From Bdellovibrionota bacterium (GTDB lineage: Bacteria > Bdellovibrionota_C > UBA2361 > CAKMMH01), in contig JBMNLI010000007.1 of the NCBI GenBank assembly GCA_050952645.1, positions 32,001 through 96,000 on the forward strand: a stretch of DNA of 64,000 bases, read 5' to 3'. The notes beneath the pieces were generated by a model. That model saw only the letters and a list, made by a program, of their open reading frames with translations, had not been told where the DNA came from and made no database searches. Made by a program: the position numbers and the translations under genes. Positions 3,003-46,622 of the stretch are shown here, piece by piece; the first letter of the stretch is position 1; each line of letters starts with the position of its first letter.

Positions 3003-3066
3003 GGGCTTCGTGGGGTGAGTGATACTAATTTTAAGGTCTTAAACCTACCTTAAAACGTGAAGAGCC
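3003..3066 (+). mobile_element. Short copy of dispersed hairpin/MITE family
   Basis: GGGCTTCG..CTTAAAACGTGAAGAGCC flanked by direct repeat TAATTTTT (2995-3002, 3067-3074); nearly identical to 35171-35234. Confidence 0.7.
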
Positions 3067-3389
3067 TAATTTTTTAAATTTTAGTAGAAATTTATCGCAA
3101 AAGAAGCTGATTTCTAAAACAAGATTATAAAAAATCTGTTTTGTAGAAAACTTAAGGATAACAAGCAGTTATAAAGAATCTACTTCTATGGCTTTTGGCG
3201 TTTTGTAAAGATTTAGCTTAATCTTTAAATACATCAAGAGCCTTTTTCTTTTATTTTTCATCTATAAACATTGAGTTCTTAAAATATATAGCTCTTCATA
3301 TCTCTGACGTTTTTTTCTATAAAGAACTTTGTTAGAGTTTTAAAATGTATTAAAGATATGGAGGACTTTTTTTAAGGTTAATTTATTAG

Positions 3390-4058
3390 ATGAAAAAGAA
3401 AATAATAAAACTAATTATAGCATTATTTATTTTTACCGTAATATTTTTAGTCCCGAGTGCTTTTGCAAAGCCTATATATGTAATTAGAAAAAACGATGGT
3501 TCAGTTTTAATTACTAATAGGACGCCACCTAAGGGAACTAATGCCGTAGTTTATACGGGACAAAGAATATACAACAACACTAAAAGTGCATATGGCAATA
3601 CTCAAGGAACATTTAGCAGAGTTCAAGGGAGCAATGCTAGTAATAATAGTGGTTATGGGGGAAAATTATTTTTAAGATATTGCGACCTTATAAAGGATGT
3701 ATCACGTTATTATAATGTATCTGAAAGTTTGATAAGAAGTGTTATCCACGTTGAGTCTTTTTATAATCCATATGCAGTTTCTAAAAAAGGCGCTCAAGGG
3801 CTTATGCAACTAATGCCTTTTGTAGCTAAAGAGTTAGGAGTTTCAAACCCATTCGTTCCAGAGCAAAATATTGAGGGAGGAACTAGACTCTTGTCGAAAC
3901 TATTAAAAAAATATAACGGCAATAGGGCTCTTGCGCTTGCGGCTTATAATGCAGGTGAGGGGGCTGTCGATAAATTCAATGGTATCCCACCTTATAAAGA
4001 AACTAGAGATTATGTAAGAAAAGTTTTAGCCTTGCAAACACGCTATGAAAGGATGTAA
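3390..4058 (+). CDS. Secreted lytic transglycosylase (SLT domain)
   Basis: Signal peptide; VES, GAQGLMQLM and ALAAYNAG motifs. Confidence 0.92.
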   Translation: MKKKIIKLIIALFIFTVIFLVPSAFAKPIYVIRKNDGSVLITNRTPPKGTNAVVYTGQRIYNNTKSAYGNTQGTFSRVQGSNASNNSGYGGKLFLRYCDLIKDVSRYYNVSESLIRSVIHVESFYNPYAVSKKGAQGLMQLMPFVAKELGVSNPFVPEQNIEGGTRLLSKLLKKYNGNRALALAAYNAGEGAVDKFNGIPPYKETRDYVRKVLALQTRYERM

Positions 4059-4106
4059 ACTCTTTTAAGAAGTTTGCAAGTTTGCAAAAATTGCGTTTAG
4101 CGAAGC

Positions 4107-4153
4107 TTAAGGAAAATTTGCGTTTAGCGAAGCTAAGTGTAAATTTTCCTTGG
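4107..4153 (+). repeat. Long hairpin capped by GCGAAGC, related to inner module of the repeat family
   Basis: TAAGGAAAATTTGCGTTTAGC-GAA-GCTAAGTGTAAATTTTCCTTG with G-U pairs. Confidence 0.6.
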
Positions 4154-4298
4154 GCTCTTTGAGTGTGCATGGTTATGTGCTAATTATCTGGCTATATTTA
4201 ACTTTAGTTTGCAAGTTTGCAAAAATTTTTGTTTAGTTCCTAATATTTATAACGTGAAGAATTAGAATTTTTTTAAATTTTGTTATTAGTAAAAAATT

Positions 4299-4859
4299 AT
4301 GAAAAGACTACCTAATATTCTTACATTTACTCGTTTGTTTTTAGTTCCATTGATGGCTATTTTTATGCTTTTTCCTTATTCGCCATATATTTATATTGCT
4401 ATGGCATTATTTATTATTGCTGGACTTACAGATTTTGTTGATGGTTATTTTGCTAGAAAGTATGATGCGGTGACGGATTTGGGAAAAATTCTCGACCCCA
4501 TAGCAGATAAATTGCTAGTAATGATTACTCTTATTATGTTTTTAGGTATAAAAACTGGGAATGGTGGCAGACCTTGGGTATCTGTTATATTAGTGGCGAT
4601 TATTTTTGCGAGAGAAATTTGGATTATGGGATTAAGAACTGTGGCATCTGCAAAAGGAGTAGTTGTTCCTGCTTCAAAGGTTGCAAAATATAAAACTACA
4701 TTTCAAATGATAGCGATTGGATTTTTATTTTTAAGTAATTATACATTTCCTTTTCTTTTATGGGATTGTTGCACTATAGGCAATTTCTTGCTTTTAATTT
4801 CCACAATTTTATCTGTAATAAGTGCAGTCGATTATTCAAAAAGAATTTTAAGTTTATAG
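4299..4859 (+). CDS. pgsA: CDP-diacylglycerol--glycerol-3-phosphate 3-phosphatidyltransferase
   Basis: PNILT..R and DFVDGYFAR..GKILDPIADK CDP-alcohol phosphotransferase motif. Confidence 0.93.
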   Translation: MKRLPNILTFTRLFLVPLMAIFMLFPYSPYIYIAMALFIIAGLTDFVDGYFARKYDAVTDLGKILDPIADKLLVMITLIMFLGIKTGNGGRPWVSVILVAIIFAREIWIMGLRTVASAKGVVVPASKVAKYKTTFQMIAIGFLFLSNYTFPFLLWDCCTIGNFLLLISTILSVISAVDYSKRILSL

Positions 4860-5131
4860 AGAAATTTGAAACGTTTGTTAAATACTTATTTCATTACAGT
4901 TATTATTTTTATATTGTGAATTAAGGTTTGTAATTATATAATCTTCTTTAACCGAGTTATTTTTATTACTTATCGTAATGTATTTATAGCAGTATATACT
5001 TTTTTAAGTTTTAAAATTTTCCAAATATTATTTTCAAAAATATAATTTTTTTAAAATGTTGTAAAAGTATTATATAAGATTTTAATTATGTTAAACCTAA
5101 ATAACAACCAAAAAAATTTTATCAAAAATAG

Positions 5132-8100
5132 GTGCAAGCTCTATCTAAAGATTGTCCTACTATATGTAAATTTTGGATTACGGCTTATAATTTAGCATTA
5201 TCGAAAAAGGTGGCAACCCCTAAGCAACTAGGCTTTAAATATTTTGAGTTAAAAGGGGAGCCGTGTATAGCTAAGTATGCTATTTTAATTCCTGGTATAA
5301 AATTAGATAATGATAGTATAAAGACTACTAAACTCCCTGGGAGTTTGTGGAAGAAGGAAGAATATGCAGATTTTGTTCCCGTTGATAAAGAAAGTGAGAC
5401 GATAAAACTTAGGACAATGAAGGGAGGGAAGATTTTTATTAAGTCTGGTATAATATTAGATATATTTAAGTTGTTAGATGAGGAGTTTCCTGTAGCAGGT
5501 TCGTTTCATGTAGGTTTTTTTAGGACTGCGCAAATTTTCGATACATCTAGTTCACCTAAGGGGAGTTCGTCTAGTAGTAGTTCATCATCTAGCAGTTCAT
5601 CGTCTAGTAGGAGTAGTAGTTTATCTAGTAGCAGTGCATCTAGTAGTAGCAGCTCATCTCTAAGTTCTTCTAGCAGTAGTAGTTTAAGTAGTTCTAGCTC
5701 ATCACCAAGTAGTAGTTCGTCTAGTTCTTTAAGTTCAAGCTTATCATCTAGTAGTAGTAGTTCATCTAGTAAGAGTTCGTCTTCTAGTAGCAAAAGTAGC
5801 TCATCTAGTTCTTCTAGCAGTTCTTTAAATCCTAGTTCATCTTCTAGTAGTAAGAGTCCGTCGTTTAGCAGTTCAAGTAAGAGCAGTTCTAGTTCTAGTA
5901 AGAGTTCTTCGCCTAGTAGTAGTAGTTCATCTAGTTCTTTAAGTTTAAGTTCTTCTTCTAGTAAGAGCAGTTCGTCTAGTAGCAGTTCTTTAAGTTCTAG
6001 TTTATCGTCTAGTAGTAGTAAAAGCAGTTCTAGTTCTAGTAAGAGTTCATCGTCAAGTAGCTCTTTAAGTCCTAGTTCAAGCAAGAGTTCTTCATCTAGC
6101 AGTTCTAGCTCTTCATCTAGTAAGAGTTCATCGTCATTTAGCAAAAGCAGTTCGAGCAAGAGTAGTTCGCCAAGTAGCAGTTCTTCTAGTTCTTTAAGTA
6201 GTAAGAGTAGCTCACCAAGTTCATCAAGTAAAAGCAGTTCATCACCTAGTAGTAGTTCTTCTTCTAGTAGTTTAAGTAGCTTGCCACCAGAGCCTCCTAT
6301 TACATCGCCTAGCACTAGTTCTTATTCTAGTAGTTCTTCGTCTAGTAGTAGTAAGAAGCCACCACTACCGCCAGTAAATCCATCTAGTAGTAGCTTTTCT
6401 AGTGAAAGTGAAGATTCCACTTCGAGTGTGCCAGTTGGTGGCTGCAAACCAGATGAAGATTTTTGTTTTGGATTATGTTGCAAGAAAGGAATGTGTCGTT
6501 ATATGACCGATGGGCTTGGAAATGTTATTGCTTGGTGGTGTGATACTCAAAGTTCTTCAGCATCATCTTTACCGCCAGTAATTATAAGTGAAAGTTTTTC
6601 TTCTTTCTCGAGTGAAAGCTCATCAGAAAGTAGCTTATCTAGTGAGAGTTCGTCTGAGAGTTCTTTTGAAAGTGTTTCTGAAAGTGTTTTATCGAGTGAA
6701 AGTGAAAGTTCGGCTAGTTTTTCTTCAGCGTGTCCTCCTGAGAGGCAGTGTGATTATCTTTGTTGTGAAGAGGGGGAGGAGTGTAAAACGTATTTACAAG
6801 AAAATGCAGACGGTGAGATTATTCCAATTCCTAGTTGTGAGAAAGTGAGTGAAAGCTCGTCTAGTTTTTCTTCTGAGACGTTTAGCAGTGAAAGTTTATC
6901 TAGTGCTTCTTTAGCGTGTCCTTCTGATAGGCAGTGTGGGCATTTATGTTGCGAGGAAGGCGAAACGTGTAGTATAGAGGTGCAGGAAGAAGGAGAAGAT
7001 ATTTATATCGTATATAATTGTGTAAAAGAGAGTGTAAGTTCTAGTGAAAGCTCTTTAAAAAGTGTAGCTTCGAGCGAAAGCTTAGAAAGTAGTAGTTCAA
7101 GCAGTTCTTCTAGTTCTTTAAGTTCTAGTTCGAGTAAGAGTAGCTCACCAAGTTCATCATCTCCAAGTAGTTCAAGCAGTTCTTCTAGCTCTTCACCTAG
7201 TAGTAGCAGTTCGCCTAGTTCTTCTAGTAGTTCTAGTAAAAGCAGTTCGAGTTCATCTAGTTCTAGTAAGAGTAGCTCGCCTAGTTCATCTAGTTTAAGT
7301 AGCTCTTCTTCTAGTTCATCATCTTCAAGTAGTTCAAGCAGTTCTTCTAGTTCTTTAAGTTCTAGTTCATCATCTAGTTTTAGTAGTAGCAGTTCTTCTT
7401 CATGCAGTGAAGGTACGGAAATGTGCGGAGACGTTTGTTGCGACCCTAATAAATGTAATTCTGATACTTGTTGCCCTAACGAAGATCCTGTGCCGTGTGG
7501 AGATGAGCCGTGTTGTGATAGAAATCAATGTAATTCTGATGATTTCTGTTGCCCATCTGATCAAGTTCCGCTAAATGATGAGTGCGTAGATCCTTGTGAT
7601 AATTGTTGCGATGATAGAGAAGATACTTTTGTATATACAAATTCTTATGGGACTGAAATAACTCGTTGTTGTCCTCAAGGGACTGTTTATCGCACACCAC
7701 AAGGTAATTTATGGTGTGATGCTAACACATGTCGAAATGGTGATGGAACTGTAAATGCGACAGAAAAGCCGTGCAAAGTTGGTTATATTTATTCTTCGCA
7801 TCCTCACCCTGTTTTTGTGTGTTGTCGCCCAGAGCTATGCATAGCAGATGAAAATAATCCAGGTTATTATATATGCGATAACCAGTCTAGCAGTAGCGTT
7901 TCTTCTTCGCAAAGTCAAGATAGCGATAGCTTATCTAGTAGTAGTTTATCTTCAAGCAGTAGTTCATTATCTAGTAGCTCATCTAGTAAAAGTTCTTCTT
8001 CAAGTAGTAGTTCGCTATCTAGTTACTCATCTAGTAGCGATACTAGTAAAGAATCTATTTCCTCTGCTTCTATTTGTGTAAATGGAAGTGATGCAAGAGG

Positions 8101-8602
8101 AAATTGTTGTGAAGATGGGACAACAGAATGTGGTGATGTGTGTTGTACTATTGGAAAGTGTTTAAAAGCTCGTCGTGAATGTTGCCCAGAAGGGACTACT
8201 CCAAATGAAACTACAAAAAAATGTGAGGCACAGTGTTCAGATTGTTGCGACCTTGAATATGAATATCAGGTATATAGCAATATGTATGGTATGCAGGTTA
8301 TCACGTGTTGCCCAATTGGTGCTACGTGCGATGATTCTGGAAATGTTCAATGTGTAGGAGGGAAAACCCTTAGAACTGTTTATGCATATAGTACCGACCC
8401 AAATACTTATAAGAGTTATAGTGGGTGCTGTATAGATGAAAATTGGGAGCCAAATGGACAATTTGTTCCATGTTCTGGTTGTGTTCCTATTCAATTATAT
8501 AAATGTGGAAGTGGTTCTACTAGTAGTTCAATATCTGAAAGTACATCTATAGATAGCTTAGATGCAAGCACTTCGGCTACTAGTCATAGTAGTAATACGT
8601 GA
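5132..8602 (+). CDS. Large Ser-rich/Cys-rich repetitive protein of unknown function; start uncertain
   Basis: 1156-aa open frame; poly-Ser tracts alternate with repeated C-x5-C-x3-CC modules; no signal peptide seen. Confidence 0.8.
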   Translation: MQALSKDCPTICKFWITAYNLALSKKVATPKQLGFKYFELKGEPCIAKYAILIPGIKLDNDSIKTTKLPGSLWKKEEYADFVPVDKESETIKLRTMKGGKIFIKSGIILDIFKLLDEEFPVAGSFHVGFFRTAQIFDTSSSPKGSSSSSSSSSSSSSSSRSSSLSSSSASSSSSSSLSSSSSSSLSSSSSSPSSSSSSSLSSSLSSSSSSSSSKSSSSSSKSSSSSSSSSSLNPSSSSSSKSPSFSSSSKSSSSSSKSSSPSSSSSSSSLSLSSSSSKSSSSSSSSLSSSLSSSSSKSSSSSSKSSSSSSSLSPSSSKSSSSSSSSSSSSKSSSSFSKSSSSKSSSPSSSSSSSLSSKSSSPSSSSKSSSSPSSSSSSSSLSSLPPEPPITSPSTSSYSSSSSSSSSKKPPLPPVNPSSSSFSSESEDSTSSVPVGGCKPDEDFCFGLCCKKGMCRYMTDGLGNVIAWWCDTQSSSASSLPPVIISESFSSFSSESSSESSLSSESSSESSFESVSESVLSSESESSASFSSACPPERQCDYLCCEEGEECKTYLQENADGEIIPIPSCEKVSESSSSFSSETFSSESLSSASLACPSDRQCGHLCCEEGETCSIEVQEEGEDIYIVYNCVKESVSSSESSLKSVASSESLESSSSSSSSSSLSSSSSKSSSPSSSSPSSSSSSSSSSPSSSSSPSSSSSSSKSSSSSSSSSKSSSPSSSSLSSSSSSSSSSSSSSSSSSSLSSSSSSSFSSSSSSSCSEGTEMCGDVCCDPNKCNSDTCCPNEDPVPCGDEPCCDRNQCNSDDFCCPSDQVPLNDECVDPCDNCCDDREDTFVYTNSYGTEITRCCPQGTVYRTPQGNLWCDANTCRNGDGTVNATEKPCKVGYIYSSHPHPVFVCCRPELCIADENNPGYYICDNQSSSSVSSSQSQDSDSLSSSSLSSSSSSLSSSSSSKSSSSSSSSLSSYSSSSDTSKESISSASICVNGSDARGNCCEDGTTECGDVCCTIGKCLKARRECCPEGTTPNETTKKCEAQCSDCCDLEYEYQVYSNMYGMQVITCCPIGATCDDSGNVQCVGGKTLRTVYAYSTDPNTYKSYSGCCIDENWEPNGQFVPCSGCVPIQLYKCGSGSTSSSISESTSIDSLDASTSATSHSSNT

Positions 8603-8630
8603 TTATAAAATCTTATTAAATAAAAAAATA

Positions 8631-8655: not shown

Positions 8656-8691
8656 CTTCAATGGAAAGCTAGCTAAATGCAAAGGTTTTCA

Positions 8692-9827: not shown

Positions 9828-9836
9828 AAGGTAAAA

Positions 9837-12276: not shown

Positions 12277-15200
12277 ATGAAAAATTTTTTTAAAAATAAT
12301 AAGATACTTATTTTTATATTATTATTTGCAGCAACGCTAAGGTTCTTAAATTTAGGCTTCCAAATAGGAAGCCACCCCGATGAGCGTGGGATAGTGATGA
12401 TTTCACTAAACACGGCTACAAATAATTATAATCCTCAAAACTTTCACTATGGACATTTCGTTTATTACTTGCTTTTTTTCTCATCACAATTTTTTAAATA
12501 CTTAAGCGGCACTTTCCCTAAAATAGAAATTTTTAAATTTTTATCATCTTACGACGGTGCATTTTATATAGGTAGAAGCTACGCCGTAGTGCTAAGTTTA
12601 ATTACAATTTTTTTTACATACTTATTAAGTTATAGATTGTTTAATAAAAAAATAGCACTATATTCTTCATTTTTTTTAGCGACTAATCCCTTTTTTATTT
12701 CTCTTTCTAGATATTATACGACAGATATATTCGTCGTATGCTTTATGGTAATGAGCGCTTACTACGCCTTAAAAGCATACGAGTTAAGTTCATACAAAAA
12801 TTATTTACTAAGCGTTTTCTTAGCATCTTTAGGCTTTACTAGTAAAATAAGCATAGCTATGCTTGTTTTCCCTTTAACGTATATTTTTATCTTGTTTTTA
12901 CTTAAGAACAAAAACTACAAATCTTTTAAATTCTATTTTCAATACGTTTTAGTTCCAATAGCACTAAGTCTTTTAACGATTTTTATTTTTGAGCCGTTTT
13001 TATTTTTAGATTTTAGTTCGTTTATAAAAGACAACAAGTTGCAACTAGATATGATTAAGGGAAAATATATGCCTCCTTACACGAGACAATATCTTGAAAC
13101 TAGCAGGGTTTTATACCATCTAGAGCAGATGCTTTTTTATACTATTAGACCAGTAGGCTTTATACTTATGATTTTAGGATTTTATTCTTTGTATGGTAAA
13201 TGTAGCAAATGCACTAAATATACTAAAAAAGAAAATTTTAAATTAGCAAAAATATTTTTATTCTTACTTGTAGTTCCCGCATTTTTAATTACTAGCACTT
13301 ATTTTGTAAAGTTTCCAAGATATTTACTAAGCATTTATCCATACCTTATGATTTTCGTAGCGTTAGGAGTAGTTTTCTTTAAAAATTATAAAGAAAAAGT
13401 GGTTGGAATTTTTGCTATAATTGTTTCAATTATTCTTGCGCTAGATAGCATTTCAATATATTTTAAAGAGCATTCATACGTTGTAGCTTCAAGATGGATT
13501 TATGAAAATGTGCCAAAATTTTCTACTATCGCAAATCCTCATTGGGATGATGTTTTGCCGCTTCATCTTCCTAATATTTCAGCAAGCGATTTTAAATATA
13601 ATTATCACACTAGAGAACAAGAGTTAGCTCTTTATGAAGAAAGCACTGATAGCAACTTAGAAAAATTTGCAAACACTCTATTAAATGCTGATTATATAAC
13701 GTTTCCTGCTGATAGAATGTTTCGTGGTATTTTAGATAAGTTTTCACAAAATAGAGAGTATTCAATAAAAATATTAAGTAGCCTATTTGATGGTTCTCTA
13801 GGTTTTGAAAAAGTCTACGTTTATAAATCGCTCTCTTTGTTATCGACGCTTGGAGTTTATAGCGATGATTTAGCTGACGAGAGTTTAACTGGATATTCAA
13901 ATCCTAAAACGTATATTTTTAAAAAAGTAAAGCAATTAAACTTAGATGAGTTAAAAGATACGATAAAAACGCCGAATAATAAAAAGATATTAGATAAAGT
14001 TTTAAAAGAGAAAAACTTTGATATCAATTCTCTCGTTGTAGATTTATCTACGCCTAGAAAATCTTCTACATTTTTTACTTCTATTTATTACATAATTTTT
14101 TGGCTTATCGCCGTCGACTTGATGTCGATGTATATATTGCCATTCTTATTTATAGTTTGTAAAAATTTTCGAGATAAAGGCTACGGAATATTTAGAGTTT
14201 TAGGCTTGGTAGTTTTTGCATTCGTAGTTTGGATATTAGCTATCGTATTTGGCTTTAAAATTACGAGATTTAATCTATTCGTCGTTTTACTTTCTCTTTA
14301 CGTAGTTTCATATTGGTTTGCAAAAATAAAAAATATAAAAATTTTAGATATTAAAGAAGCGTTCTTAAAAAATATACTAAAAATAGAAGTGTTTTATTTA
14401 TCTATATTTTTAATTTTTGCAATTTTTAAATTTCTTTCTCCTGAAATTGTGTGGGGCGAAAAAACTATGGACTTAGGTTTCTTAAATTATTTTATAAGAT
14501 TAGAAACTCTTCCTTGCGGCGACCCTTGGTCTGTCGGCAGTAAGTTATCTTATTATTTCTTTGGATATTTTACGTTTAGTCTAATACATAAATTATTCTT
14601 AATTCCTTCAGAATACGGCTTTAATTTATCGCTTATCTTATCGGCTTCAATGCTTGCAACATCGCTTCTTACATTGTTTTACTACTTTAAAAAATCGATT
14701 AATTTTTCAATCTTTGCATCAGCTAGCGTTTTGCTTCTTTCAAATCTTGAAATGTTTTATATATACTTTTTTGATAAAACTAAAGTGTGGCAATTAAACT
14801 TTGATTTATATTGGAAAGCCGCTAGAGTTCATGAAAAATATTCGCATGCTATAAGTGAGTTCCCTTTCTGGTCTTTTATTTTTTCCGACCTTCATCCACA
14901 CGTAATGGCGATGCCAATTTTTATTTGTATGCTTATATGCTTTGCTTATATCTACAAAGAAGAAAAATATAATAAATTATTTTTTATACTTTTTCCTATA
15001 ACTGCAGTAGTTTTATGTATGACAAATACTTGGGATGTAGTGTCTATTTCTTTTCTTGCAACCGTTTTTACGCTACTTTTAATATTTTTTAAATGTAGAA
15101 AATCTCTCTATGTAATAAAAACTTTTTTTATTTTAAGCATAATTTCATTAGTCTTCTTTTGCCCATTTTATCTTTATCATTTATCGGCTTCGGATAATAG

Positions 15201-16245
15201 TATAAATTGGGTTCAAGCTTCCGAGTTTCATAGAGCGTTTCACGTCTTTAGACATTTTGGCGTTTGGCTTTTTCTAATATTTTTAAGCTTTTTAGTAAAT
15301 ATTAAAAGCCTTCTTAAAAAAACTAGCCTACTAAAAATCTTCTTATATTTAGTAGCATCGAGCGTGCCTTTTATTTTCGCTAGCTTTTCGCCTTTTGAAA
15401 ACATTTCTTTAGGTATTCAAGCGATAAGTGCATCGTTAATTTTTATTGGGTTAATAAGTCTAGGTGATGATAATTTTTTAAGAAGTGTTTTTATCGTTAC
15501 CTTTGCTATCTTACTGTCTTTTACTGAGCTTTGTTATATTGCAGATAGACCTAACACGATATTTAAGTTTTATTTAGGGATGTGGTTTTTAATAGGAGTT
15601 GCTAGTCTTTTATCGTTAGAAGATATTTTAAAATATAAAATATCAATATTTTTGTGTTCAGTATTATTTTTTATAAGTTTAGCAAGCTCGTGCGTTATAT
15701 ATTATATAATGGCAAAACATACCCATGTAGGAACTGAAAAAGTAATAGGAACGTTAAATGGGACGGAGTTTTTAAAATCACGCTACCAAGACAGGCTAAA
15801 CGTTGTTTCTTATATAAATTCTCATATATTTAAAACTCCAGTTTTAATGGAGGCTTATGGGAAACCTTATATGCCAAACACCACTTTGCCGTACCAAAAA
15901 TACACTGGGCTTCCTATCGTTCAAGGATGGGCTCATCACACTTTTCAGCGTGGCACTAGTAGAGAAAGCATAGCGGAGAAAAAAAGAGATATAGATAGCT
16001 TCTATTTAACTTTAAATAAAAATGAGATTAAAAGAATAATAGATAAGTATAATATCTCTTTAGTAGTAGTAGGAGAAAAAGAACGAGAAAAATATCCGCT
16101 TCTTTCTAATGATGCTAGTAATAAATTTAAGCTATATAATGATATTTTTATTAGTTTATATTCCTCTAATGGTGAAGCGGTGTATTTAGTTCATAAGAAC
16201 AGGGCAGATTTTAAAAATTCGGTAGATTTTTTTGTTGGATATTAA
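12277..16245 (+). CDS. GT-C membrane glycosyltransferase: PMT/ArnT-like domain fused to DUF2298 (Chlor_Arch_YYY)
   Basis: HPDE in first loop and many TM helices; then GEKTMD..DPW..LSYYFFG, EFPFWSF..DLHPH, NTWD, GWAHH. Confidence 0.8.
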   Translation: MKNFFKNNKILIFILLFAATLRFLNLGFQIGSHPDERGIVMISLNTATNNYNPQNFHYGHFVYYLLFFSSQFFKYLSGTFPKIEIFKFLSSYDGAFYIGRSYAVVLSLITIFFTYLLSYRLFNKKIALYSSFFLATNPFFISLSRYYTTDIFVVCFMVMSAYYALKAYELSSYKNYLLSVFLASLGFTSKISIAMLVFPLTYIFILFLLKNKNYKSFKFYFQYVLVPIALSLLTIFIFEPFLFLDFSSFIKDNKLQLDMIKGKYMPPYTRQYLETSRVLYHLEQMLFYTIRPVGFILMILGFYSLYGKCSKCTKYTKKENFKLAKIFLFLLVVPAFLITSTYFVKFPRYLLSIYPYLMIFVALGVVFFKNYKEKVVGIFAIIVSIILALDSISIYFKEHSYVVASRWIYENVPKFSTIANPHWDDVLPLHLPNISASDFKYNYHTREQELALYEESTDSNLEKFANTLLNADYITFPADRMFRGILDKFSQNREYSIKILSSLFDGSLGFEKVYVYKSLSLLSTLGVYSDDLADESLTGYSNPKTYIFKKVKQLNLDELKDTIKTPNNKKILDKVLKEKNFDINSLVVDLSTPRKSSTFFTSIYYIIFWLIAVDLMSMYILPFLFIVCKNFRDKGYGIFRVLGLVVFAFVVWILAIVFGFKITRFNLFVVLLSLYVVSYWFAKIKNIKILDIKEAFLKNILKIEVFYLSIFLIFAIFKFLSPEIVWGEKTMDLGFLNYFIRLETLPCGDPWSVGSKLSYYFFGYFTFSLIHKLFLIPSEYGFNLSLILSASMLATSLLTLFYYFKKSINFSIFASASVLLLSNLEMFYIYFFDKTKVWQLNFDLYWKAARVHEKYSHAISEFPFWSFIFSDLHPHVMAMPIFICMLICFAYIYKEEKYNKLFFILFPITAVVLCMTNTWDVVSISFLATVFTLLLIFFKCRKSLYVIKTFFILSIISLVFFCPFYLYHLSASDNSINWVQASEFHRAFHVFRHFGVWLFLIFLSFLVNIKSLLKKTSLLKIFLYLVASSVPFIFASFSPFENISLGIQAISASLIFIGLISLGDDNFLRSVFIVTFAILLSFTELCYIADRPNTIFKFYLGMWFLIGVASLLSLEDILKYKISIFLCSVLFFISLASSCVIYYIMAKHTHVGTEKVIGTLNGTEFLKSRYQDRLNVVSYINSHIFKTPVLMEAYGKPYMPNTTLPYQKYTGLPIVQGWAHHTFQRGTSRESIAEKKRDIDSFYLTLNKNEIKRIIDKYNISLVVVGEKEREKYPLLSNDASNKFKLYNDIFISLYSSNGEAVYLVHKNRADFKNSVDFFVGY

Positions 16246-16365
16246 AATCGTTTTAAAAAAAAATTAAAGTTTTAATACTAAAATTTAAAAGCTAAAAATT
16301 TTTACAAGCTAAAATTTTAAAACAAAAATAGTATAAAAAATTTATTATAACAAAAGGAAGCTTAA

Positions 16366-18576
16366 ATGATATTACTATTATTTATATGTCTTTTAATGTT
16401 CGTGTTTTTATTCTTTTCAATTCCAGTTATAGAAGCGTCTTGTATATGTTATATAGCGATGGTTATTTTCTATTTTATTTTAGGGAAAATGGGAGTAGCA
16501 AGCAGTGCATCTATTATTATATCGTTTCTTCTTACATTGCTTTTATTGATATCTTTAAAAAAATTACAATCTGATAAAATTACTAAGGAAAATTTAGATA
16601 AAAAAAAATTTAATATAAATTTTAATATTAAAGAGTTAAATTATATTTTAGCGTTTGCTTTTCTTTATACTTGTTTTTATATTTTAAATTTATCTTGGGG
16701 AGATTTTATATCTATAGGAGAAAGGCTAAGGGATTATTCAATTTTAGCAAGCGTAATACATTCACCTATCGATGTAAAGGAGCCTTGGTTTTCGGGATTA
16801 ACTTTAAATTACTACGCTTTCTGGTATCGGGCAGGGGCTCTTGTAAGTTATGTGTTTAATTATGAAGTTTTTGAGACGTACCATATTTTATCTACGCTTA
16901 ACACGACTTTTTTCGTAATGCTAGTTTTCGTCATATTAAATAAGTATTTAAGTTTTTCTTTTTTTCGATCTGTGCTTCTTACTTTTTTAGTATTCCCAGG
17001 GAGTAATATTAACGGTATAAAATTCTTTTTTTCAGCCGATACTAATTGGTGGGGACCATCTAGAGTTATTAAAGGTGCCATTACGGAGTTTCCAGCTTGG
17101 TCATTCGTATTAGGAGATATCCATCCTCATTTTTTAAACTTATTATTTTTTCCTTTAATTGTTTTACTTTTACTTTCTTTTACATTTTCTAAACAAGATT
17201 TAAGGCAGGATTTAGAGCAAGATTCAAATCAAAACAAGATAAATAATATTTTATTATTTATATCTTTTTTTATTTATTCCAACTCTTTTCTCATATAATG
17301 CTAATGTTTGGGATGTTCCAATTTACTTATTACTGTTTTTTGGACTTTTAACCTTTTTATATATTTTAATTTCTTGTTATAAAAAAAGTTTTACATCTTT
17401 TAATAGCAAATTAAAAAAATAAGATAAATTTAAATCAATGTTTTTTAGCATTGATTATTTTTATTTTAATAGTTTCATTATATTTATCTTCTAGAAATAT
17501 TACTTCCGTTGGTGCGTCTTTAAAGTTTGTAAAAGGAGAGGTTGAAAGAACGACGCTTTATGAATTTATAGACGCTTTTGGAATGCAGTTTTTCTTAATT
17601 TTTGTAGGACTATTTTTACTTATAAAAAATAGGTGTGCAAAAGTTTTGCTTTCTATATTACTAGTAGGAGCGATACTGTTTTGTAAAGTAGCGCTTTTCC
17701 CGATAGTTATTTTGCTATGTTTTAATATATATAGAATACATGAAGATGTAAAAAGCAGTGATGATTATTTAAAAGATAATAAAAAGCTAGTGTTTGAAAC
17801 ATTAGGCGTAGTTTCTTTGCTTCTATGGGCAATTCCTGAAATTGTATATCTTCAAGATGGCTATGGTGTTTTACATGCTAGAATGAATACTATTTTTAAA
17901 ATTTATAGTGCTAATTGGGCTATTAGTTTTTTATTTGTTTTTTATTTAATAAGACGTGTTTTAGAAAAATATAAAGAAAGTAATAAAGAAAATTATAATG
18001 ATAATGAAAATTATAATAGTAAAAATAAGCAAGTCGTTTTAACTTTTAATATATTATTTTCTTTTATTTCGCTTATATCTGTGCTTTGTTTTTTTAAATT
18101 AATCGACTTAAGAAAAACGGATTATAAGGCTAGTTTTAAGGAAAGAAGTGCTGGGCTTATAGAGTTAAATAAGATAGATGGCGGTAAGTTTAGCGGAGTT
18201 AAAAACACGATAGAAGATTTAAGGACTAGAGAAAGGGGTGTGGTTTTAGAAGCGACTAATGGAGCTTATAATTACGCTTCTCACGTAGGAACGCTTTCAG
18301 GCAATACGTCATATTTAGGCTGGATAAACCATGTGGGGTTATTATATAAAAATCATGATGATATAAATATTAGAAAGCAGAATATAGATGATTTTTATAC
18401 GAAAATGAGTTGCTCTGAGAGGAAAACGGTTTATGAAAGATAATAATATATCTTACGTAGTTCTTGGGCCTTTAGAAAAGGAAGAATATAAGGATAGAAT
18501 AAATAATGATTTTTATTGTTTGAAAAATATTATACAATACGGAAAGTATAGTATTTTTATGCCCTTTACTTTTTAG
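16366..18576 (+). pseudogene. Second DUF2298 protein, broken by at least 3 frameshifts (pseudogene or assembly error)
   Basis: GERLRD..EPW..LNYY and EFPAWSF..DIHPH in 16366-17298; NVWD out of frame at ~17305; 17451-18443 continues; shifted tail YVVLGPLEKEEY ends TAG 18576. Confidence 0.75.
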
Positions 18577-18717
18577 TGGAGATTTTCTTTTACGTCCTTT
18601 GCTTTTATGAGGGGGGTGGCTTAAAAGAAAATCGACACGAGCGAAGCTCTAGGGGCGATTTTCTTTTAAGGCCTATGCGTAATCGATGATAAGTGTGGGA
18701 ACTAAAAGTAAAGGGCT
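18561..18717 (+). repeat. Nested inverted-repeat element related to the hairpin family
   Basis: Outer GCCCTTTACTTTT/AAAAGTAAAGGGC; inner CTTAAAAGAAAATCG/CGATTTTCTTTTAAG enclosing GAGCGAAGCTC. Confidence 0.65.
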
Positions 18718-18798: not shown

Positions 18799-19770
18799 AT
18801 GGATAATCTTTATTTAGAAAAGCGCAAAGCTTCTCTGCAAAGTATTTCAGTAGTAGTTCCGTGTTATAATGAAGAAGAGGTAATTACAGAAACTTATAAG
18901 CGGTTAAAGGCAGTATTAAATAAGGTCGGTATTCCTTATGAGATTATTTTTGTAGATGATGGAAGTAAGGACAATACTTGGGGGTTATTATCAGAGCTTT
19001 CAGATAATGATAAATGTGTAAAAGCTATAAAACTTGCTAGAAATCATGGACATCAATTTGCACTTACTTGCGGGCTTGATCAGAGCAAAGGAGAGGTGGT
19101 GCTTATAATCGATGCCGATTTACAAGACCCTCCCGAGCTTTTAGAAGAAATGCTTGAAAAATGGAAGGAAGGCTACTACGTAATTTACGGCAAGAGGATA
19201 GCGAGAGATGGCGAGAGTCGCTCGAAGAGATTTTTTGCTTTTAGTTTTTATAGAATTATTTCAAAAATTTCAAAAATAGAAATTCCAAGAGATACTGGAG
19301 ATTTTAGGCTAGTCGATAGAAAGGCTTTAGATGTTTTGCTTAAGATGCGTGAACCGCAAAGATTTATTAGAGGCATGGTAGCTTGGATAGGTTTTCCGCA
19401 AACGCCTATTTTATACCATAGACAGGAACGCTTCGCAGGAAGCACTAAGTATCCTTTTAAGAAAAGTTTGCTTTTAGCCTTCGATGCTATTACATCTTTT
19501 TCATACGTGCCGTTAAGGCTTACTACTTATTTAGGAATGTTTTTCTCGTTCTTTTCATTTATATATTTTATAGTAGTAATAGTATTAAAATTTAAGGGGG
19601 TAAACTTTTCAGGATACACTTCTTTAATGGGAGCGATTTTAATGCTCGGTGGCATTCAACTTATAATGCTAGGAATTATAGGAGAGTATGTAGGAAGAAT
19701 TTTTCAGCAGGGGCAAAAAAGACCGTTATATATAATTCAAGATATAAAAGGAGAACCGTTTGAAAAATAG
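18799..19770 (+). CDS. GT2 polyprenyl-phosphate glycosyltransferase (GtrB/ArnC-like)
   Basis: [28 protein letters not shown], two C-terminal TM helices. Confidence 0.92.
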
Positions 19771-21066
19771 CAAAGAAAGAGTAGCTATCGTAGGAGCTGG
19801 ATTTGCAGGACTTGCTTGTGCATTCGATTTAGCAAAAAATGGGTTTGATGTTACTGTATTTGAAAAAGAAAGCGAAGCTGGAGGGCTAGCAGGAAGTTTT
19901 ACTTTAAAAAACGGCACATCCGTTGAAAAGTTTTATCACCATTTATTTACTACCGATAAAGATATTTATGATTTTCTAGAAGAGTTAGGTTTAAAGTCGA
20001 AATTAAGAGCGTATGAAAGTAAAACTGGAATATATTGCGATGATAAAATTTATTCACTTTCATCGCCTTTAGATTTATTAAAGTTTAAGCCGTTAAAATT
20101 TTAGAAAGAATAAAAATGGGATTAGGAGTGCTAAAAGCAAAGGCTATAAGAAGCTATCTTCGTTTAGAAGATATGTTTGCAACTACTTGGCTAAAAGATA
20201 ATTGTGGAAAAGAAGCTTATAAGAAAGTTTGGCTTCCACTATTAAAGGGCAAGTTTGGTGATTGCTACGAGGAGATTTCTGCCGTTTGGATATGGAATAA
20301 ATTTAAGTTAAGAGGCGGTAGTAGGAATAATGGAGGACACGAAGTTTTAGTGTATTTTGAAAATGGATTTAAGGAAATAATTAGTAAAATATGTAGCAAG
20401 CTTGAAGCACTCGGAGTTAAGTTTTTATTTGATAGTCCCGTAGATAAGGTAGAAAAAGAGGGCGATGAGTTTTTAGTTTATTCTAATGGGAGTGTGTATA
20501 ATTTTAAAAAACTTTCGTTTACTACATCTCCTAAAGATTTTGTAGATGTAGTAAAATTTTTGCCTACCGATTATAAAAACTCTTTAATGCGTATTAGGCA
20601 TTTAGCAAATATTTGTTTAGTTTTAGTTTTAGATAAAAAATTTTCAGATATTTATTGGCTAAATGTAGCAGATGAGAATTTTCCTTTCGTAGGGATAATA
20701 GAGCATACTAATTTTCATAGTAGTGAGCATTACGGTGGAAAGCATATATTATATTTATCAAAGTATTTAAAAGAATACGATGTGCTTTACTCTTATTCAA
20801 AAGAAGAGCTAGTAGACTATAGTTTAAAGTTTCTACAAAAAATAAATCCAGATTTTAAAAAGGATAGCATAGAAGAAGCGTATCTGTTTAAGTCTAAGTG
20901 TAGCCAACCAATTATTGAAAAGGAGTATTCTAAATTATTATTTAGCATGAAAACTAAGGTTGATAATTTGTTTTTTACCTCGATGGCGCAAATTTATCCT
21001 CAAGATAGGGGGACTAATTTTGCGGTTAAGTATGGAAGAATGTTAGCTAAGGAAATGTTAGGATAG
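19760..21066 (+). CDS. FAD-dependent oxidoreductase (PPO/amine-oxidase fold), split by a 1-nt frameshift near 20100
   Basis: [20 protein letters not shown] in 19760-20104; adding one T at 20099-20102 joins it to 20116-21066 (IYPQDRG). Confidence 0.8.
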
Positions 21067-23115: not shown

Positions 23116-23147
23116 GGTTCTAAAACCCACTTAAAACGTGAAGAGTA
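23116..23147 (+). repeat. Minimal remnant of the hairpin/MITE family
   Basis: GGTTCTAAAACCCACTTAAAACGTGAAGAGTA flanked by AGTATTTT on both sides. Confidence 0.6.
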
Positions 23148-33275: not shown

Positions 33276-33380
33276 GGTTCTTTCACGTTTTAGAAAGGCT
33301 TTGGAAAAATTGTTTTTGGCTTCGTCGATGAGTGATGCTAATTTAAAGGTCTAAAACCCACCTTAAAACGTCAAAGAACT
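33276..33380 (+). mobile_element. Medium copy of the hairpin/MITE family
   Basis: GGTTCTTTCACGTTTTAG...CTTAAAACGTCAAAGAACT with internal GGCTTCGTCGATGAGTGATGCTAAT; no clean TSD. Confidence 0.7.
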
Positions 33381-35010: not shown

Positions 35011-35234
35011 GGTTCTTCACGTTTTAGGTGGGTTAGAAAAATTGTTTTTAGGGGTTAGCTTAAAAGAAAATTGGCTTTTATAGAAAACTATCTATAGTTT
35101 AAAGAAAAATTACAACTATATTTAAAGTAATTTATTTTATGCAAATTTCTTTAAAGTCAATTTTCTTTTGTGCTTCGTCGAGGTGAGTGATACTAATTTT
35201 AAGGTCTAAAACCTACCTTAAAACGTGAAGAGCT
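35011..35234 (+). mobile_element. Longest copy (224 bp) of the hairpin/MITE family
   Basis: TIR GGTTCTTCACGTTTTAGGTGGGTTAGA / TCTAAAACCTACCTTAAAACGTGAAGAGCT; AAAATTTT on both flanks; nested inner stems. Confidence 0.8.
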
Positions 35235-38962: not shown

Positions 38963-38979
38963 GTGTTGATGTTAGTGGA

Positions 38980-39160
38980 GAGTTTAAAAGAAAATTGGCT
39001 TTTATGGAGAACTAGCTATGGTAAAAAAAAATTACAGCTATATTTAAAGTAATTTTTGTTTATGTAAATTTCTAAAAAGTCAATTTTCTTTTGGACTACG
39101 TGGGGGGAAGAGGATGTTAATTTTTTAGAGCTTAAACTATCCTTAAAAACATGAAGAGCC
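38980..39160 (+). mobile_element. Left-truncated, diverged copy of the hairpin/MITE family
   Basis: AAAAGAAAATTGGCTTT..AAAGTCAATTTTCTTTT..CATGAAGAGCC, colinear with 35060-35234. Confidence 0.7.
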
Positions 39161-39236
39161 TCTTTTTTTATATAAAATCCATTTTTAGTTGAAGAAGGAC
39201 GGTTAAGCTTATTTTTAAACGCATGAAGAGCTAATT

Positions 39237-41923: not shown

Positions 41924-41951
41924 AATTTAAAATAATATAGGAGGATATAAT

Positions 41952-42296: not shown

Positions 42297-42314
42297 ATAT
42301 AGTTTTTTTTGCAC

Positions 42315-42914: not shown

Positions 42915-43026
42915 GTTTTTTGTGATGGGCTCATGCGTTTTAAGGTGGTTAGAAAATTTTGTTTTTAAACTTTTCGCTATTGACTTTTGTTTAAAAAACA
43001 AAGATTATAGTCTGTATTGTGTTTGT

Positions 43027-43102
43027 TCCCCAGTAGCTCAGTTGGTAGAGCAAATGACTGTTAATCATTGGGTCACTGGTTCGAGTCCAGTCTGGGGAGC
43101 CA
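43027..43102 (+). tRNA. tRNA-Asn(GTT)
   Basis: Cloverleaf TCCCCAG..CTGGGGA-G-CCA, anticodon loop CTGTTAA. Confidence 0.97.
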
Positions 43103-43153
43103 TTTTTTCTTCAAGTTTTTTTATTCAAAAAAGAATTCTTTTTTGCCAAATTT

Positions 43154-43227
43154 GCACCATTAGCTCAGTTGGATAGAGCGTCTGACTACGAATCAGAAGG
43201 TCGTAGGTTCGACTCCTTCATGGTGCA
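43154..43227 (+). tRNA. tRNA-Arg(ACG), CCA not encoded
   Basis: Acceptor GCACCAT/ATGGTGC, anticodon loop CTACGAA, TTCGA loop. Confidence 0.95.
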
Positions 43228-43324
43228 TACTTTTCTAGCATCTTTCTTAATACGTTTTCTTTAAAACAAAGCTTTCTTTTCTGTTTTGCTTAAATATTTT
43301 TTACTTATCTAGTTTGTTTTATAA

Positions 43325-43431
43325 GGAAACACTGATTAACAGCATAATTCTAAGAGTTTTTTTTAAACATCTTGAAAAAATTAACTTTTTATATCTGTTT
43401 TTAGAAATTTTAGACATTAATCAGTGTTTCC
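43325..43431. mobile_element. 107-bp MITE-like element with perfect 15-bp terminal inverted repeats
   Basis: GGAAACACTGATTAA / TTAATCAGTGTTTCC. Confidence 0.5.
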
Positions 43432-43586
43432 ATAAAATTACTTTATAAATAACCACTATAAAAAAAGCTTTAAATCAGTGATAATGCCAAAAGCGATTGT
43501 TTTTATACTTGTAAAAATATTTTGCCCTAGAGAAAAATATTGTAGTTTATTTATTTTAACCATTTAAAGGTTTTAAAAGATAAAAA

Positions 43587-45764
43587 ATGAAGAGTGATTT
43601 TATAAAAACGCATAATGCAAAGTTTTCGGCTAAGCTATTAGCTATATTAGTCTGCTTTATCTCCCTATTTATAGCAAGAAATAGAGTTTTTTACGTTTTA
43701 GATACTAAAATTATAGGTGGTGTAGTCGGGGACAGTGGACTTTATTATTGGCTAGCAAAATCTTTTGTAAGAAATATTTTTGAAAATTCTTTTTTTCAAA
43801 CCTCCATGTATTATCCGTATGGATATACGCTTGCTTGGAGTGATAACTTTATATTGCCAAGTGCTTTTATAAATTTTTTAAATTTATTTTTTTCTTTCGA
43901 TGTTTCTTATAATCTATGTTTTATTTTTACTTGGCTACTTAATGGATTTTCCTGTTTTTTGCTTTTATATTTTTTAACTGGCTCTTTTATTTATTCAATT
44001 TTACCGAGTGTGCTTTTTTGTATAAACTCTTCGCTAGGTTTTTCTATGGGGCATCCGCAGCTTCAATTTATTTTTTTTATTCCACTTGGTATCTATTATT
44101 TTTTAAGATTTATTGCATACGAAAGAAAAAGAGATTCTTTTTATTTAGGTTTAACAATCCTTTTATCTTTTTTAACGACCGTTTATTATGCCTTGTTTTT
44201 ATGTTTAGTTATTTTCTTTTTGTATATAGCAATCTTTTTATTAAAGCCTAAGTACGTTTTAAAATATAAGCATATAACAAACTTGCTAAAAGGTTTTATT
44301 TTAGGGTTTCTCCCTATAACTATATTTTTAGTCCCTTATTTTAATGTTAAAAAAACTTTTTCTAAAAGGGCTCTATATGAGGCTTACGCATTTTCATCAA
44401 ATTTAAGTTCTTATTTTACGAGTTCTCCTCTAAGCGTATTTTATAAAAATTTTAATTTTTCACATAACGAAAGCGTTTCATTCGTAGGCTTTATTCCAAT
44501 TATTTCACTACTTTTATTAACTATCACGATTTTAAAAGGCGCTAAAGTTTTAAGTAAACATTTATTTAGTTTTTCCGTGCTATTTTTAATAGGCTTATAC
44601 TTAACTAGCTTTATAACCGAAGAAAATTATATTTCTTATTATGCTTCATTTTTTTTATGGAGTGGGTATCTAGTTTTAATTTTTATGCTTATTAAACTTA
44701 AGAATTTAGAGTATAACGACAACCTTTATATATTAAGCAATAGAGGGCTAATCTTAAGTTTTTTATTTTTGCTTGTATCTCTTGTTTTCTTGTCGCTAGG
44801 TCCTCTTGGGAGTGAAGTAGCGGTATCACGCCCGACTGGTTTATATAGTGTAATGTATCATATATTTCCTGGGGTTAATGCGATGCGTGCTACTGGGCGA
44901 ATTGGATTAGTCGTGATTTTAGTAATGTATATATTATTTTCGTTAAATTTTTATTTAATATCTAGGAAGAGTAAGTTTGTATCGCTTATTTTTGTGTTAT
45001 GTTTTTTATTAAATTTTGCAGAACAAAAAGTAGTAGCGTTTCAAATAGGAAATAAGCCTAAAGTAAAGTATGAAGCTATTATAGCTAAGCTAAACGCGTT
45101 GCCTAGTAAGTATGCTATGATATATTTGCCAATGGTAAATGATAAAAATAAAAACTCAGAAGTTAATTATGCAAATATGAGTGTATCTTATATGATAGAT
45201 GCGCTGTCTCATAGGCACCCTATAATAAATGGCTATTCTGGGCAGAGAGGACGCTCTGGCAAGGAGTATCGAGATATAATGAGAGATTTTCCAGACAAAC
45301 TTTCCGTAGCCACACTAACTAATAATTACAATTTAAAATACGTATTTTATGATGGGGATAAAGTTGATGGTTTCGATGCTAAAGCCTTTGAAGAAAAGGT
45401 TAGCAATTTTAAAAATGATTTAAAGATTATAGCCAAGCAGGGCAATGCTTATTTGATAGAGTATATAGGAAGTGTAGTTAATGAAAAAGGTTATTATTTA
45501 ATGGTTCCAAAGTATTATGATAAAATTGATATAAATATAAAAACCAAAGGTAGCCCTAAAGAGATGGCTAATAAAGCTATAATGATAAAAAACAATAATA
45601 ATGATGCGTATGTAGGAAGCATTACTTCTAAGGGAGATGGGAAGTGGATTAAGTATAAGGTAGATTTATCGAAAACGTTTTGCGACAATAAGGTTTCTCC
45701 ATATAGGCTTGTTTTTTCTAATATTTCAAATGGTCAAAAGGTGTATATAAAGCATTACGATTAA
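43587..45764 (+). CDS. Polytopic membrane protein, probable GT-C/YfhO-like
   Basis: GD in first loop, YYPYG..LAWSD, many TM helices, MRATGR, INGYSG. Confidence 0.65.
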   Translation: MKSDFIKTHNAKFSAKLLAILVCFISLFIARNRVFYVLDTKIIGGVVGDSGLYYWLAKSFVRNIFENSFFQTSMYYPYGYTLAWSDNFILPSAFINFLNLFFSFDVSYNLCFIFTWLLNGFSCFLLLYFLTGSFIYSILPSVLFCINSSLGFSMGHPQLQFIFFIPLGIYYFLRFIAYERKRDSFYLGLTILLSFLTTVYYALFLCLVIFFLYIAIFLLKPKYVLKYKHITNLLKGFILGFLPITIFLVPYFNVKKTFSKRALYEAYAFSSNLSSYFTSSPLSVFYKNFNFSHNESVSFVGFIPIISLLLLTITILKGAKVLSKHLFSFSVLFLIGLYLTSFITEENYISYYASFFLWSGYLVLIFMLIKLKNLEYNDNLYILSNRGLILSFLFLLVSLVFLSLGPLGSEVAVSRPTGLYSVMYHIFPGVNAMRATGRIGLVVILVMYILFSLNFYLISRKSKFVSLIFVLCFLLNFAEQKVVAFQIGNKPKVKYEAIIAKLNALPSKYAMIYLPMVNDKNKNSEVNYANMSVSYMIDALSHRHPIINGYSGQRGRSGKEYRDIMRDFPDKLSVATLTNNYNLKYVFYDGDKVDGFDAKAFEEKVSNFKNDLKIIAKQGNAYLIEYIGSVVNEKGYYLMVPKYYDKIDINIKTKGSPKEMANKAIMIKNNNNDAYVGSITSKGDGKWIKYKVDLSKTFCDNKVSPYRLVFSNISNGQKVYIKHYD

Positions 45765-45970
45765 GCCTTAATACGTTTTTTTTAAAGAAAGTGGCTAGGT
45801 TAATTTTACAATTTTAAGTTAGCTAAAAGCTAAAGAAAAGGCTACTTGTTTGATATATCCCCAAAAAATACCTCTAAGTTAAAATAAACCTGCATAGCAA
45901 AACAGCGTTTTGTATAATAAAAAGATTGTGAGTTGATTTTATATACTTATCTTATATAAAGGAGAAGATT

Positions 45971-46374
45971 ATGGAAGTAAATATGGGAGCTAGAAGGGGG
46001 GCTCGAGGACATAGAGGAATGGAGCTAGTCAAGATGATAGAGCTAGTCAAGAAGGACAAGTTGATAATGGAGGGTTGAGGGCAGCTAATATGCCAACAGT
46101 GAGTAATCCTAATGCTCAAGTCGGAGATAAAATATTGTACGAAAATGTTGAAAAAATCTTAACGACAATGGTTAAAGAAGGTAGGCTAAGAAAAGGAGAT
46201 TTAAATGAATTTTTCTTTAGTTTAATAAAAGGAAGTGAATTAGAAGAAATTGCAAATAAAGCATTAAAATCTCTAAGTTCCGCTTTTTCAGATAAACTAA
46301 AGTTTAAACGAGAAAGTGAAGACAGGGAGTGGAGAAGAAAGAGGAGGAGATGGATTTTTGCAGAAAACTCCTAA
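45971..46374 (+). CDS. Hypothetical protein, apparently frameshifted near 46018
   Basis: AAGGAG SD plus ATG 45971; adding one A joins it to the frame of ORF 46075-46374. Confidence 0.45.
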
Positions 46375-46514
46375 CTTTATTACCCTTTAAAAGCGAAGAA
46401 AGATTTTTTGTAATTATTTGAAAATATTAAAAAAATAAAACTTTGAGAAGAAAAGTGGATGCCTCGCCAAGAATATCAAGCAACAAAGGGAACGATAACT
46501 CAGAAATTTAAATT

Positions 46515-46622
46515 AGCTCTCTCCCTCTTGCTTTTGCCTTTTAAGATGGTTAGAAAACCGATAATAAAAGAGTTTCTAAACACACACTTTTAAATACACG
46601 CAAAAGCGAGAGGGAAAGAACT
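46515..46622. repeat. Long hairpin between convergent genes, related to the repeat family
   Basis: TCCCTCTTGCTTTTGC/GCAAAAGCGAGAGGGA; inner TTTTAAGATGGTTAGAAA resembles the family left arm. Confidence 0.6.

Follow-up and report, generated by a model that had tools for sequence, protein, structure and literature searches.

A gene-less element family with ISL3-type ends, and a class C group II intron seated in its inner hairpin, in a Bdellovibrionota genome

The window analysed here, a stretch of 64,000 nucleotides from a Bdellovibrionota bacterium (positions 32001-96000 of contig C7 of genome G000), contains members of a family of MITEs (transposable elements of miniature size with inverted repeats), and the genome in which it lies (1.95 Mb, 31% GC, 17 contigs, completeness 93.75%) very probably records the nesting of one mobile element within another: approximately 150 gene-less elements with ISL3-type ends, which would have been spread in trans by an ISL3 transposase, and an inner hairpin within those elements that would have received nine of the ten copies of a group II intron through independent retrohoming. 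ISL3-type MITEs, modular MITEs and stem-seeking class C introns are each already known, and it is their nesting that refines current views. Among public sequencing runs, the best matches to the window are metagenomes from digesters and bioreactors, and no RNA dataset carrying it is found in the listed public runs.

A genome-wide search for the terminal motif GG(C/T)TCTTCACGTTTTA returned 185 matches with no more than two mismatches, as compared with 3.7 in shuffled sequence, and the dispersed family that a first-pass annotation of the window had proposed is real. BLAST searches with three reference copies yielded 150 loci (21,252 bp in total, or 1.1% of the genome, with a single match in the reversed genome); none of the 150 is half-covered by an open reading frame (ORF) of at least 100 aa, such frames making up 81% of the genome. 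By the same searches the window holds six loci, and the density over the whole genome is about one per 13 kb, rather than the one per 6 kb originally estimated. The loci display the properties by which prokaryotic MITEs are recognized, being short, non-coding and present in many dispersed copies, with terminal inverted repeats and a stable fold (z = -6.9 for the copy at 35011-35234, equalled by none of 200 shuffles), and no Rfam family was found to match them. The end pattern occurs 131 times in this genome and 0-2 times in each of 30 relatives, which indicates that the expansion is lineage-specific among the genomes searched. In the orthologous comEC-pyrG spacer of genomes G001-G003, which is too diverged to provide a base-level empty site, no MITE match was present other than a single AT-rich, coding match of 56 bp at 75% identity.

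Among 58 left-right pairs of ends separated by at most 400 bp (a set that includes mis-pairings and nested pairs, and whose members are thus not independent), 14 are bounded by exact 8-bp direct repeats, against 0.49 expected when flanks are permuted in a manner that preserves their AT bias, and 25 are bounded by 8-bp repeats within one mismatch, against 3.1 expected; repeats of 2-7 bp show no clear excess, and those of 9-13 bp show none. The three exact repeats described in the first-pass annotation (at 3003-3066, 23116-23147 and 35011-35234) are all present, and the AT bias and palindromy that had been raised as their possible cause do not explain them, given the excess over an AT-keeping null and the fact that only two of 19 exact duplications are palindromic. 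A possible origin of inverted flanks in hairpin perfection was rejected (four of the 58 pairs within one mismatch, 2.7 expected). When the flanks of 33 well-bounded copies were used to search for empty sites, the 5' region of a family of Ser-rich genes was found to carry TTTTAATT once in five paralogues (one of them in the window), and twice around both a 222-bp MITE (C12:89290) and a MITE that contains the intron (C6:23218); two further paralogues retain half of the MITE, for a tally of five empty sites and four that are filled or half-filled. Because the empty paralogous sites carry the 8-mer once, they show that the elements went in with duplication of 8 bp of target, the first step in the history of the family. 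The member of this gene family in the window (5132-8602) is a repetitive, Ser-rich ORF of 1,156 aa with no Pfam match; the conserved 5' region is found in at least nine places, and several paralogues are interrupted by the MITE.

Only one element in the genome combines MITE-type ends with a transposase: a 1,860-bp ISL3 element at C10:339480-341339, which possesses both ends, an 8-bp repeat (AAAAATTT) and an ISL3 transposase frame (the sole PF01610 match in the genome; NF033550 at 228.7 bits, with a cut-off of 180). An empty paralogue of its insertion site, at C15:49534, carries its 8-mer once. The features of an ISL3-derived family are accordingly all seen: a transposase bounded by the same ends, an 8-bp AT-rich duplication, and termini of the GG(C/T)TCT type. 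Over its initial 24 bases, the 224-bp form of the MITE is identical to the ISL3 left end, and the likeness of the 224-bp and 104-bp forms to the ISL3 copy is limited to those first ~24 bases. The reference copy of a third, ~270-bp form is 93% identical to the last 219 bp of the ISL3 copy, and seven other full copies are 79-89% identical to that reference; these eight are internal deletion derivatives of the ISL3 element. Both ends lie in the fetched DNA for 23 of 80 related ISL3 loci, and 19 of those 23 start with GG(T/C)TCTTCAC at both (the first six bases having been imposed by the end search and the next four being free). The C10 element, by virtue of its matching ends, would have supplied the enzyme that moved the family, and the earlier description of the MITEs as non-autonomous and mobilized in trans agrees with the duplication statistics, the empty sites and this cognate transposase, although mobilization itself is read from the shared ends. 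The ISL3 gene opens at an ATG, but its reading frame shifts about 29 codons later, in an A-run; in its relatives some 450 codons are read without a break. The sequence around the frameshift is the same in a contig of run X1, which may be the source sample. The assembly contains no other full copy, and a left-end remnant of a second one, 89% identical over 288 bp, was noted at C17:340019-340300. Since the single assembled gene is frameshifted and no second full copy accompanies it, the family is probably now immobile in this strain. With this query, ISL3 relatives at E 1e-30 were not found in 90 other genomes of the order.

Two other accounts of the family were considered. IS1595 elements have also been described with 8-bp AT-rich duplications and GG-type ends, and the first-pass annotation had assigned the family to them; mobilization by an IS1595-type or other unassembled transposase, to which the incompleteness of the genome lends some room, is nevertheless very improbable, because the same ends and duplication length occur in an ISL3 element, and because the IS1595 models PF12762 and PF12760, as well as the IS6 and IS1 models (PF13610 and PF03400), have no match in the genome at its 93.75% completeness. 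An insertion sequence in the window (58874-60741) was examined as a potential mobilizer and rejected, since it belongs to the IS1634 family and its ends are unrelated to those of the MITE. The repeats might instead be host palindromes of a terminator-like or regulatory kind that were spread by recombination, with flanking repeats that arose through AT-bias coincidence; the non-coding position of all 150 loci, the A/T runs in their flanks and their strong fold are all compatible with such an origin, but the sharp excess at exactly 8 bp over the flank-permutation null, the empty sites (which refute it as an account of origin) and the near absence of the ends from the 30 relatives leave it scarcely any probability. 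The family also has a described counterpart in Microcystis aeruginosa, where an ISL3-linked MITE of 187 nt has GGCTCTTCG ends and 8-nt repeats; the present family resembles it in having ends that start with GGCTCTTC, 8-nt direct repeats, a stem-loop fold and an ISL3 transposase inferred from matching ends, and differs from it, so far as the available text describes that element, in being modular (32-810 bp), in comprising three subfamilies with a single, frameshifted master, and in including intron-bearing copies (PMC11448079).

The 104-bp and 224-bp forms differ by an inner hairpin of ~120 bp, and arrays of the inner part reach 810 bp. Full, uninterrupted copies number 24 for the 224-bp form, 23 for the 104-bp form and eight for the ~270-bp form, and tandem arrays are present at C9:42963-43772 and C10:108.2-112.6 kb. 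Variation in length through gain or loss of inner stems, as first described from the window, is therefore observed throughout the genome, with the gain, loss or tandem repetition of the inner hairpin appearing as a third step in the history of the family; short T-run or GG microhomologies are its likely route. A 316-bp composite at C9:31355-31670 consists of two MITE pieces around a passenger of ~90 bp, with one 8-bp duplication overall. Sequence beside the copy at C17:161982 matches this passenger at 99% identity, which hints at the capture of adjacent DNA. BOX elements have been linked to an ISL3-family enzyme. Like the BOX elements of Streptococcus pneumoniae, the MITEs are intergenic and vary in length through a self-folding inner module, a likeness of organization; unlike the MITEs, BOX elements are described in the available text of that report without any intron association (PMC3049150).

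Elements of 2.1 kb, initially considered as autonomous parents of the family, proved to be MITEs that hold a group II intron of 1,894 nt. Ten copies of the intron exist in the genome, with no additional fragments, and the copy at the start of the window has as its 5' exon a MITE hairpin located directly upstream (C7:31331-31507), a placement that the first-pass annotation does not mention. The intron-encoded reverse transcriptase (RT) matches the structures 7UIM (E 5e-107) and 6AR1 (E 1e-99) far better than LtrA (only 2e-47), and its Pfam content consists of RVT_1 and GIIM only. These PDB matches and this domain content assign the intron to class C (IIC), where its endonuclease-less RT aligns it with GsI-IIC (whose RT is 6AR1), the intron of the 7UIM RT, Di.ze.I1 and So.gl.I1 (PMC3522654). 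The RT frame is intact in five of the ten copies; in the others, the break is in some cases an indel of one base, for which misassembly could be responsible. The nearest RT relatives among those found are from Firmicutes (57-77%), with none in the three genomes of the same family, and a 5' motif of the intron had no match in metagenome contigs. The GC content of the intron (41%, as compared with 31% for the genome) suggests that it was probably gained horizontally. At C10:108196-112590, a copy of IS1634 (108921-110780) is found inside the RT gene of an intron, and that intron in turn interrupts tandemly repeated 98-bp units of a MITE variant with a short hairpin, forming a three-level nesting.

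Nine of the ten introns, six in one orientation and three in the opposite one, are located at the foot of the stem inside the MITE, where the target consists of that stem followed by a T-run, while the tenth, on C15, is found at an ordinary, unique hairpin. A stem is predicted at all ten insertion sites; RGC ends all ten 5' exons, and T begins nine of the ten 3' exons. Insertion immediately after a DNA stem-loop, with an intron-binding site 1 (IBS1) of ~4 nt and an IBS3 of 1 nt, is as expected of class C introns, which share the short exon-binding sites EBS1 and EBS3 and insertion a few bases past a DNA stem (PMC3522654). A loop in domain I, GCUA, covaries with the end of the exon across 14 related copies in seven genomes (a perfect match of four of four in six copies, and a paired last exon base in all 14) and by inference corresponds to EBS1; a candidate considered earlier, further downstream, displayed no covariation. 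The match to EBS1 is perfect at the non-MITE site on C15 and extends to two or three of four bases at the MITE sites, which argues against adaptation of the intron to the MITE. The intron occupies eight of 44 hairpin modules and none of 23 hairpin-less 104-bp copies (P = 0.027). Eight of the ten copies lie on the G-rich strand, in agreement with the bias of class C introns toward lagging-strand-template insertion (PMC8643678, PMC8919778). Among related introns (a set restricted to loci of at least 50% identity, with L007 and L023 omitted as truncated), twenty copies follow unique short hairpins and do not share flanks. In Allobaculum, a related class C intron is present in six copies (L016-L019, L025 and L028) with three different EBS1 loops, each of which matches its own exon end at three or four of four positions, a case of target drift within one genome.

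A fourth step in the proposed history would accordingly involve a class C intron of Firmicute-like type, probably a horizontal acquisition, that reads a DNA stem, RGC and then T, and whose GCUA loop would pair with the last bases of the exon, as the covariation in relatives supports. The MITE hairpin shows this stem-RGC-T signal at both of its feet, so that each copy of the element would provide a target on each strand.

The order of these events can be read from the degree to which introns and hosts have diverged. Nine uninterrupted introns differ from one another at 0-12 positions in ~1,894 nt (less than 1%), whereas the eight host modules among the 44 differ at 0-12 positions in 116 nt (up to 10%), a disparity that implies independent arrival and that fits retrohoming into pre-existing MITEs as the likely process. 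On a tree of the modules, which is built from a short alignment and has few well-supported branches, the hosts are scattered among empty copies (seven changes for eight rows, as compared with a shuffled mean of 6.9). Two identical hosts hold the intron in opposite orientations, and a single paralogous site is found in three states (empty, MITE only, and MITE with intron). A competing explanation, in which one or two intron insertions into MITEs gave rise to a 2.1-kb unit that the ISL3 transposase went on to disperse, finds encouragement in composites that retain both ends together with distinct 8-bp duplications, either exact (C6:23218, C10:227972 and C7:144939) or with one mismatch (C7:128297, C12:308748 and C17:116391). 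It is largely refuted, and must be considered improbable, in view of the presence of the intron in both orientations, of two identical introns in hosts that differ at 4 of 116 nt (P = 1e-5), of the empty copies among the nearest neighbours of the hosts (the hosts form a group in 0% of 200 bootstrap trees), and of one filled site whose paralogous counterpart holds the MITE at the same position but no intron. Two sister MITEs (C12:229964 and C10:95450) contain GTGTG, the first five bases of the intron, directly after the landing site, a feature of two of 55 hairpin-type junctions; the motif may be a scar left where an intron was lost via a 3-base microhomology, or may have arisen by ordinary mutation.

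Whether the intron favours the MITE, or is simply found where targets are abundant, depends upon how a target is defined. When vacant candidate sites are taken to be non-coding RGC-W sequences after a stem, the MITE accounts for 115 of 837, 84 of 242 and 72 of 122 at minimum stem lengths of 8, 10 and 12 bp, respectively, and the corresponding chances of finding nine of ten introns in MITEs are 3e-7, 8e-4 and 0.055, with a comparable spread in another analysis; these stem definitions are crude, and the filter misses three occupied sites at 8 bp and the C15 site at 10-12 bp. The MITE is thus the main supplier of long-stem targets, providing between a third and three-fifths of them, which largely explains where the intron is found, and a preference beyond abundance is unproven; 36 of the 44 hairpin modules are vacant. 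A true preference for the MITE stem, with its great length and branched loop, would imply a partnership of the two elements, and is encouraged by the presence of nine of ten copies in 1.1% of the genome, by the enrichment at stems of at least 8 bp (P = 3e-7) or at least 10 bp (P = 8e-4), and by the twenty related Firmicutes introns that follow unique short terminators with dissimilar flanks. It is doubtful given the 12-bp result (P = 0.055), the perfect EBS1 match of the tenth copy in its ordinary hairpin as opposed to the partial matches at MITE sites, and the bias that survival in non-coding DNA can impose on the sites that are observed. A broader conjecture, itself rather unlikely, holds that a dead DNA-transposon family paved the way for invasion by a retroelement that favours MITE stems over host terminators, with the GTGTG junctions as scars. 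If it were true, the MITE burst would have made most of the long-stem landing pads in the genome, usable on both strands; those pads, with stems that enclose a branched loop of ~85 nt, would be unlike any terminator; and the two older GTGTG copies would testify to an earlier round of gain and loss.

Several observations weigh against the reading of ISL3-mobilized MITEs that were invaded independently by the intron. Transposition and retrohoming are both read from sequence alone; the empty sites recovered are the five paralogous ones within this genome, the relatives being too distant for such sites to be read base by base; and no MITE-less allele of a window copy is present among the joints listed for four of 15 listed runs, in which 40 further joints lie outside the listed rows and one listed joint (35228-35006) matches a tandem-copy junction at C17:71424. 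The only assembled ISL3 gene is broken, so that the source enzyme of the youngest copies is not in hand, and an exact 8-bp repeat is kept in only three of 19 related ISL3 loci with flanks. The hairpin control weakens to P = 0.08 when the short copies are restricted to the 15 with an intact motif, and the strand bias reaches only P = 0.055. Finally, the 3' side of the intron in the window is followed (at 1402-1480) by a 12-bp tandem repeat, with the remainder of the MITE gone; no reciprocal copy for this junction was found, and a deletion, a recombination between intron copies or a misassembly may have produced it.

Integron sites serve IIC-attC introns as a repeated mobile target, from which the MITE hairpin described here differs. 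The stem-seeking insertion of class C introns is itself well established (PMC3522654, PMC8643678, PMC7161350); their usual target is an intrinsic terminator, while nine of ten copies here are at a single MITE stem with a loop of ~85 nt, on both strands. One survey found that class C introns only slightly prefer the neighbourhood of mobile elements (PMC7306698). The IS-homing group II introns E.c.I1, I3, I4 and I9 offer a parallel, in which a retroelement multiplies on a repeated mobile target; those introns are situated in transposase genes, and the target here is a non-coding hairpin (PMC3522654). In the main text of a 2024 review of prokaryotic MITEs, the words 'intron' and 'ISL3' are absent (PMC10969869), and the available part of a Streptococcus mitis genome paper lists class C introns as well as BOX elements and draws no connection between the two (PMC2828477); a search from which subscription journals were mostly absent returned no report of class C introns that target MITEs. 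The system offers a clean and well-controlled case in which one mobile element limits how many copies of another can be accommodated, since MITE expansion, rather than host terminators, sets how many class C sites there are; in which a paralogous site in three states fixes the order of events within a single genome; and in which a natural target with a long stem, a large loop and two usable strands provides a substrate for probing the stem requirements of class C introns.

The coordinates of the features in the window are collected in the following table.

Table 1. Intron, MITE copies, MITE relatives and empty target site in the window (positions counted from its first nucleotide).
Feature	Position	Strand	Description
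Group II intron, 3' part	1..1401	+	Full intron C7:31508-33401, 1,894 nt; RF00029 at 1331-1401
Intron-encoded reverse transcriptase/maturase	16..1317	+	433 aa, TIGR04416; no endonuclease domain detected
MITE right half	3003..3066	+	Lacks left end; retains flanking 8-bp repeat TAATTTTT on either side
Empty target site	5283..5290	+	TTTTAATT once, in 5' region of Ser-rich paralogous gene
Diverged palindromic relative	18561..18717		Inner stem in common (E 7e-5 over 21 bp); ends differ
Internally deleted copy, 32 bp	23116..23147	+	Six left-end bases fused to right end; flanked by 8-bp repeat AGTATTTT
Copy of 104-bp type	33276..33380	+	No inner hairpin; 85% to reference; direct repeat gone
Complete 224-bp MITE	35011..35234	+	Both terminal inverted repeats, inner hairpin, 8-bp duplication AAAATTTT; no intron
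Inner hairpin module	35058..35173		Long stem closing a branched loop of ~85 nt; in other copies, intron landing pad at either foot
Older copy of 224-bp type	38966..39159	+	80% identical; no left end
Left-end fragment	42927..42965	+	E 5e-5
Internal fragment	63392..63444	+	Positions 140-191 of 224-bp form, 79%

The sequences and coordinates in the first-pass annotation are present as described, and its list of MITE copies required amendment chiefly at the margins. All five of its principal elements exist, two of them without a left end and a third without its direct repeat, and the two shortest (3003-3066 and 23116-23147) are best read as internal deletions that retained their target duplications. 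Of its proposed fragments and relatives, those at 42927 and 63392 are members and that at 18561 shares the stem with diverged ends; weak matches were obtained at 46515-46622 (E 0.025) and at 4100-4265 (E 0.04, a single end motif of 14 bp), and 39205-39235 is unsupported as a relative. The 4100-4265 region also contains locally duplicated 22-mers unrelated to the MITE.

Elsewhere in the window, the stretches 12277-18443 and 19760-21066 contain two genes for DUF2298 membrane proteins, the second of which is split into two ORFs, and a flavin oxidoreductase gene that is likewise split in two; these may represent frameshifts or assembly errors. The IS1634-family element at 58874-60741 encodes a transposase of 562 aa between 34-bp inverted repeats (58874-58907 and 60708-60741) that form the strongest long-range inverted pair in the window, and its nine genome copies, at 99.8-100% identity, indicate recent activity.

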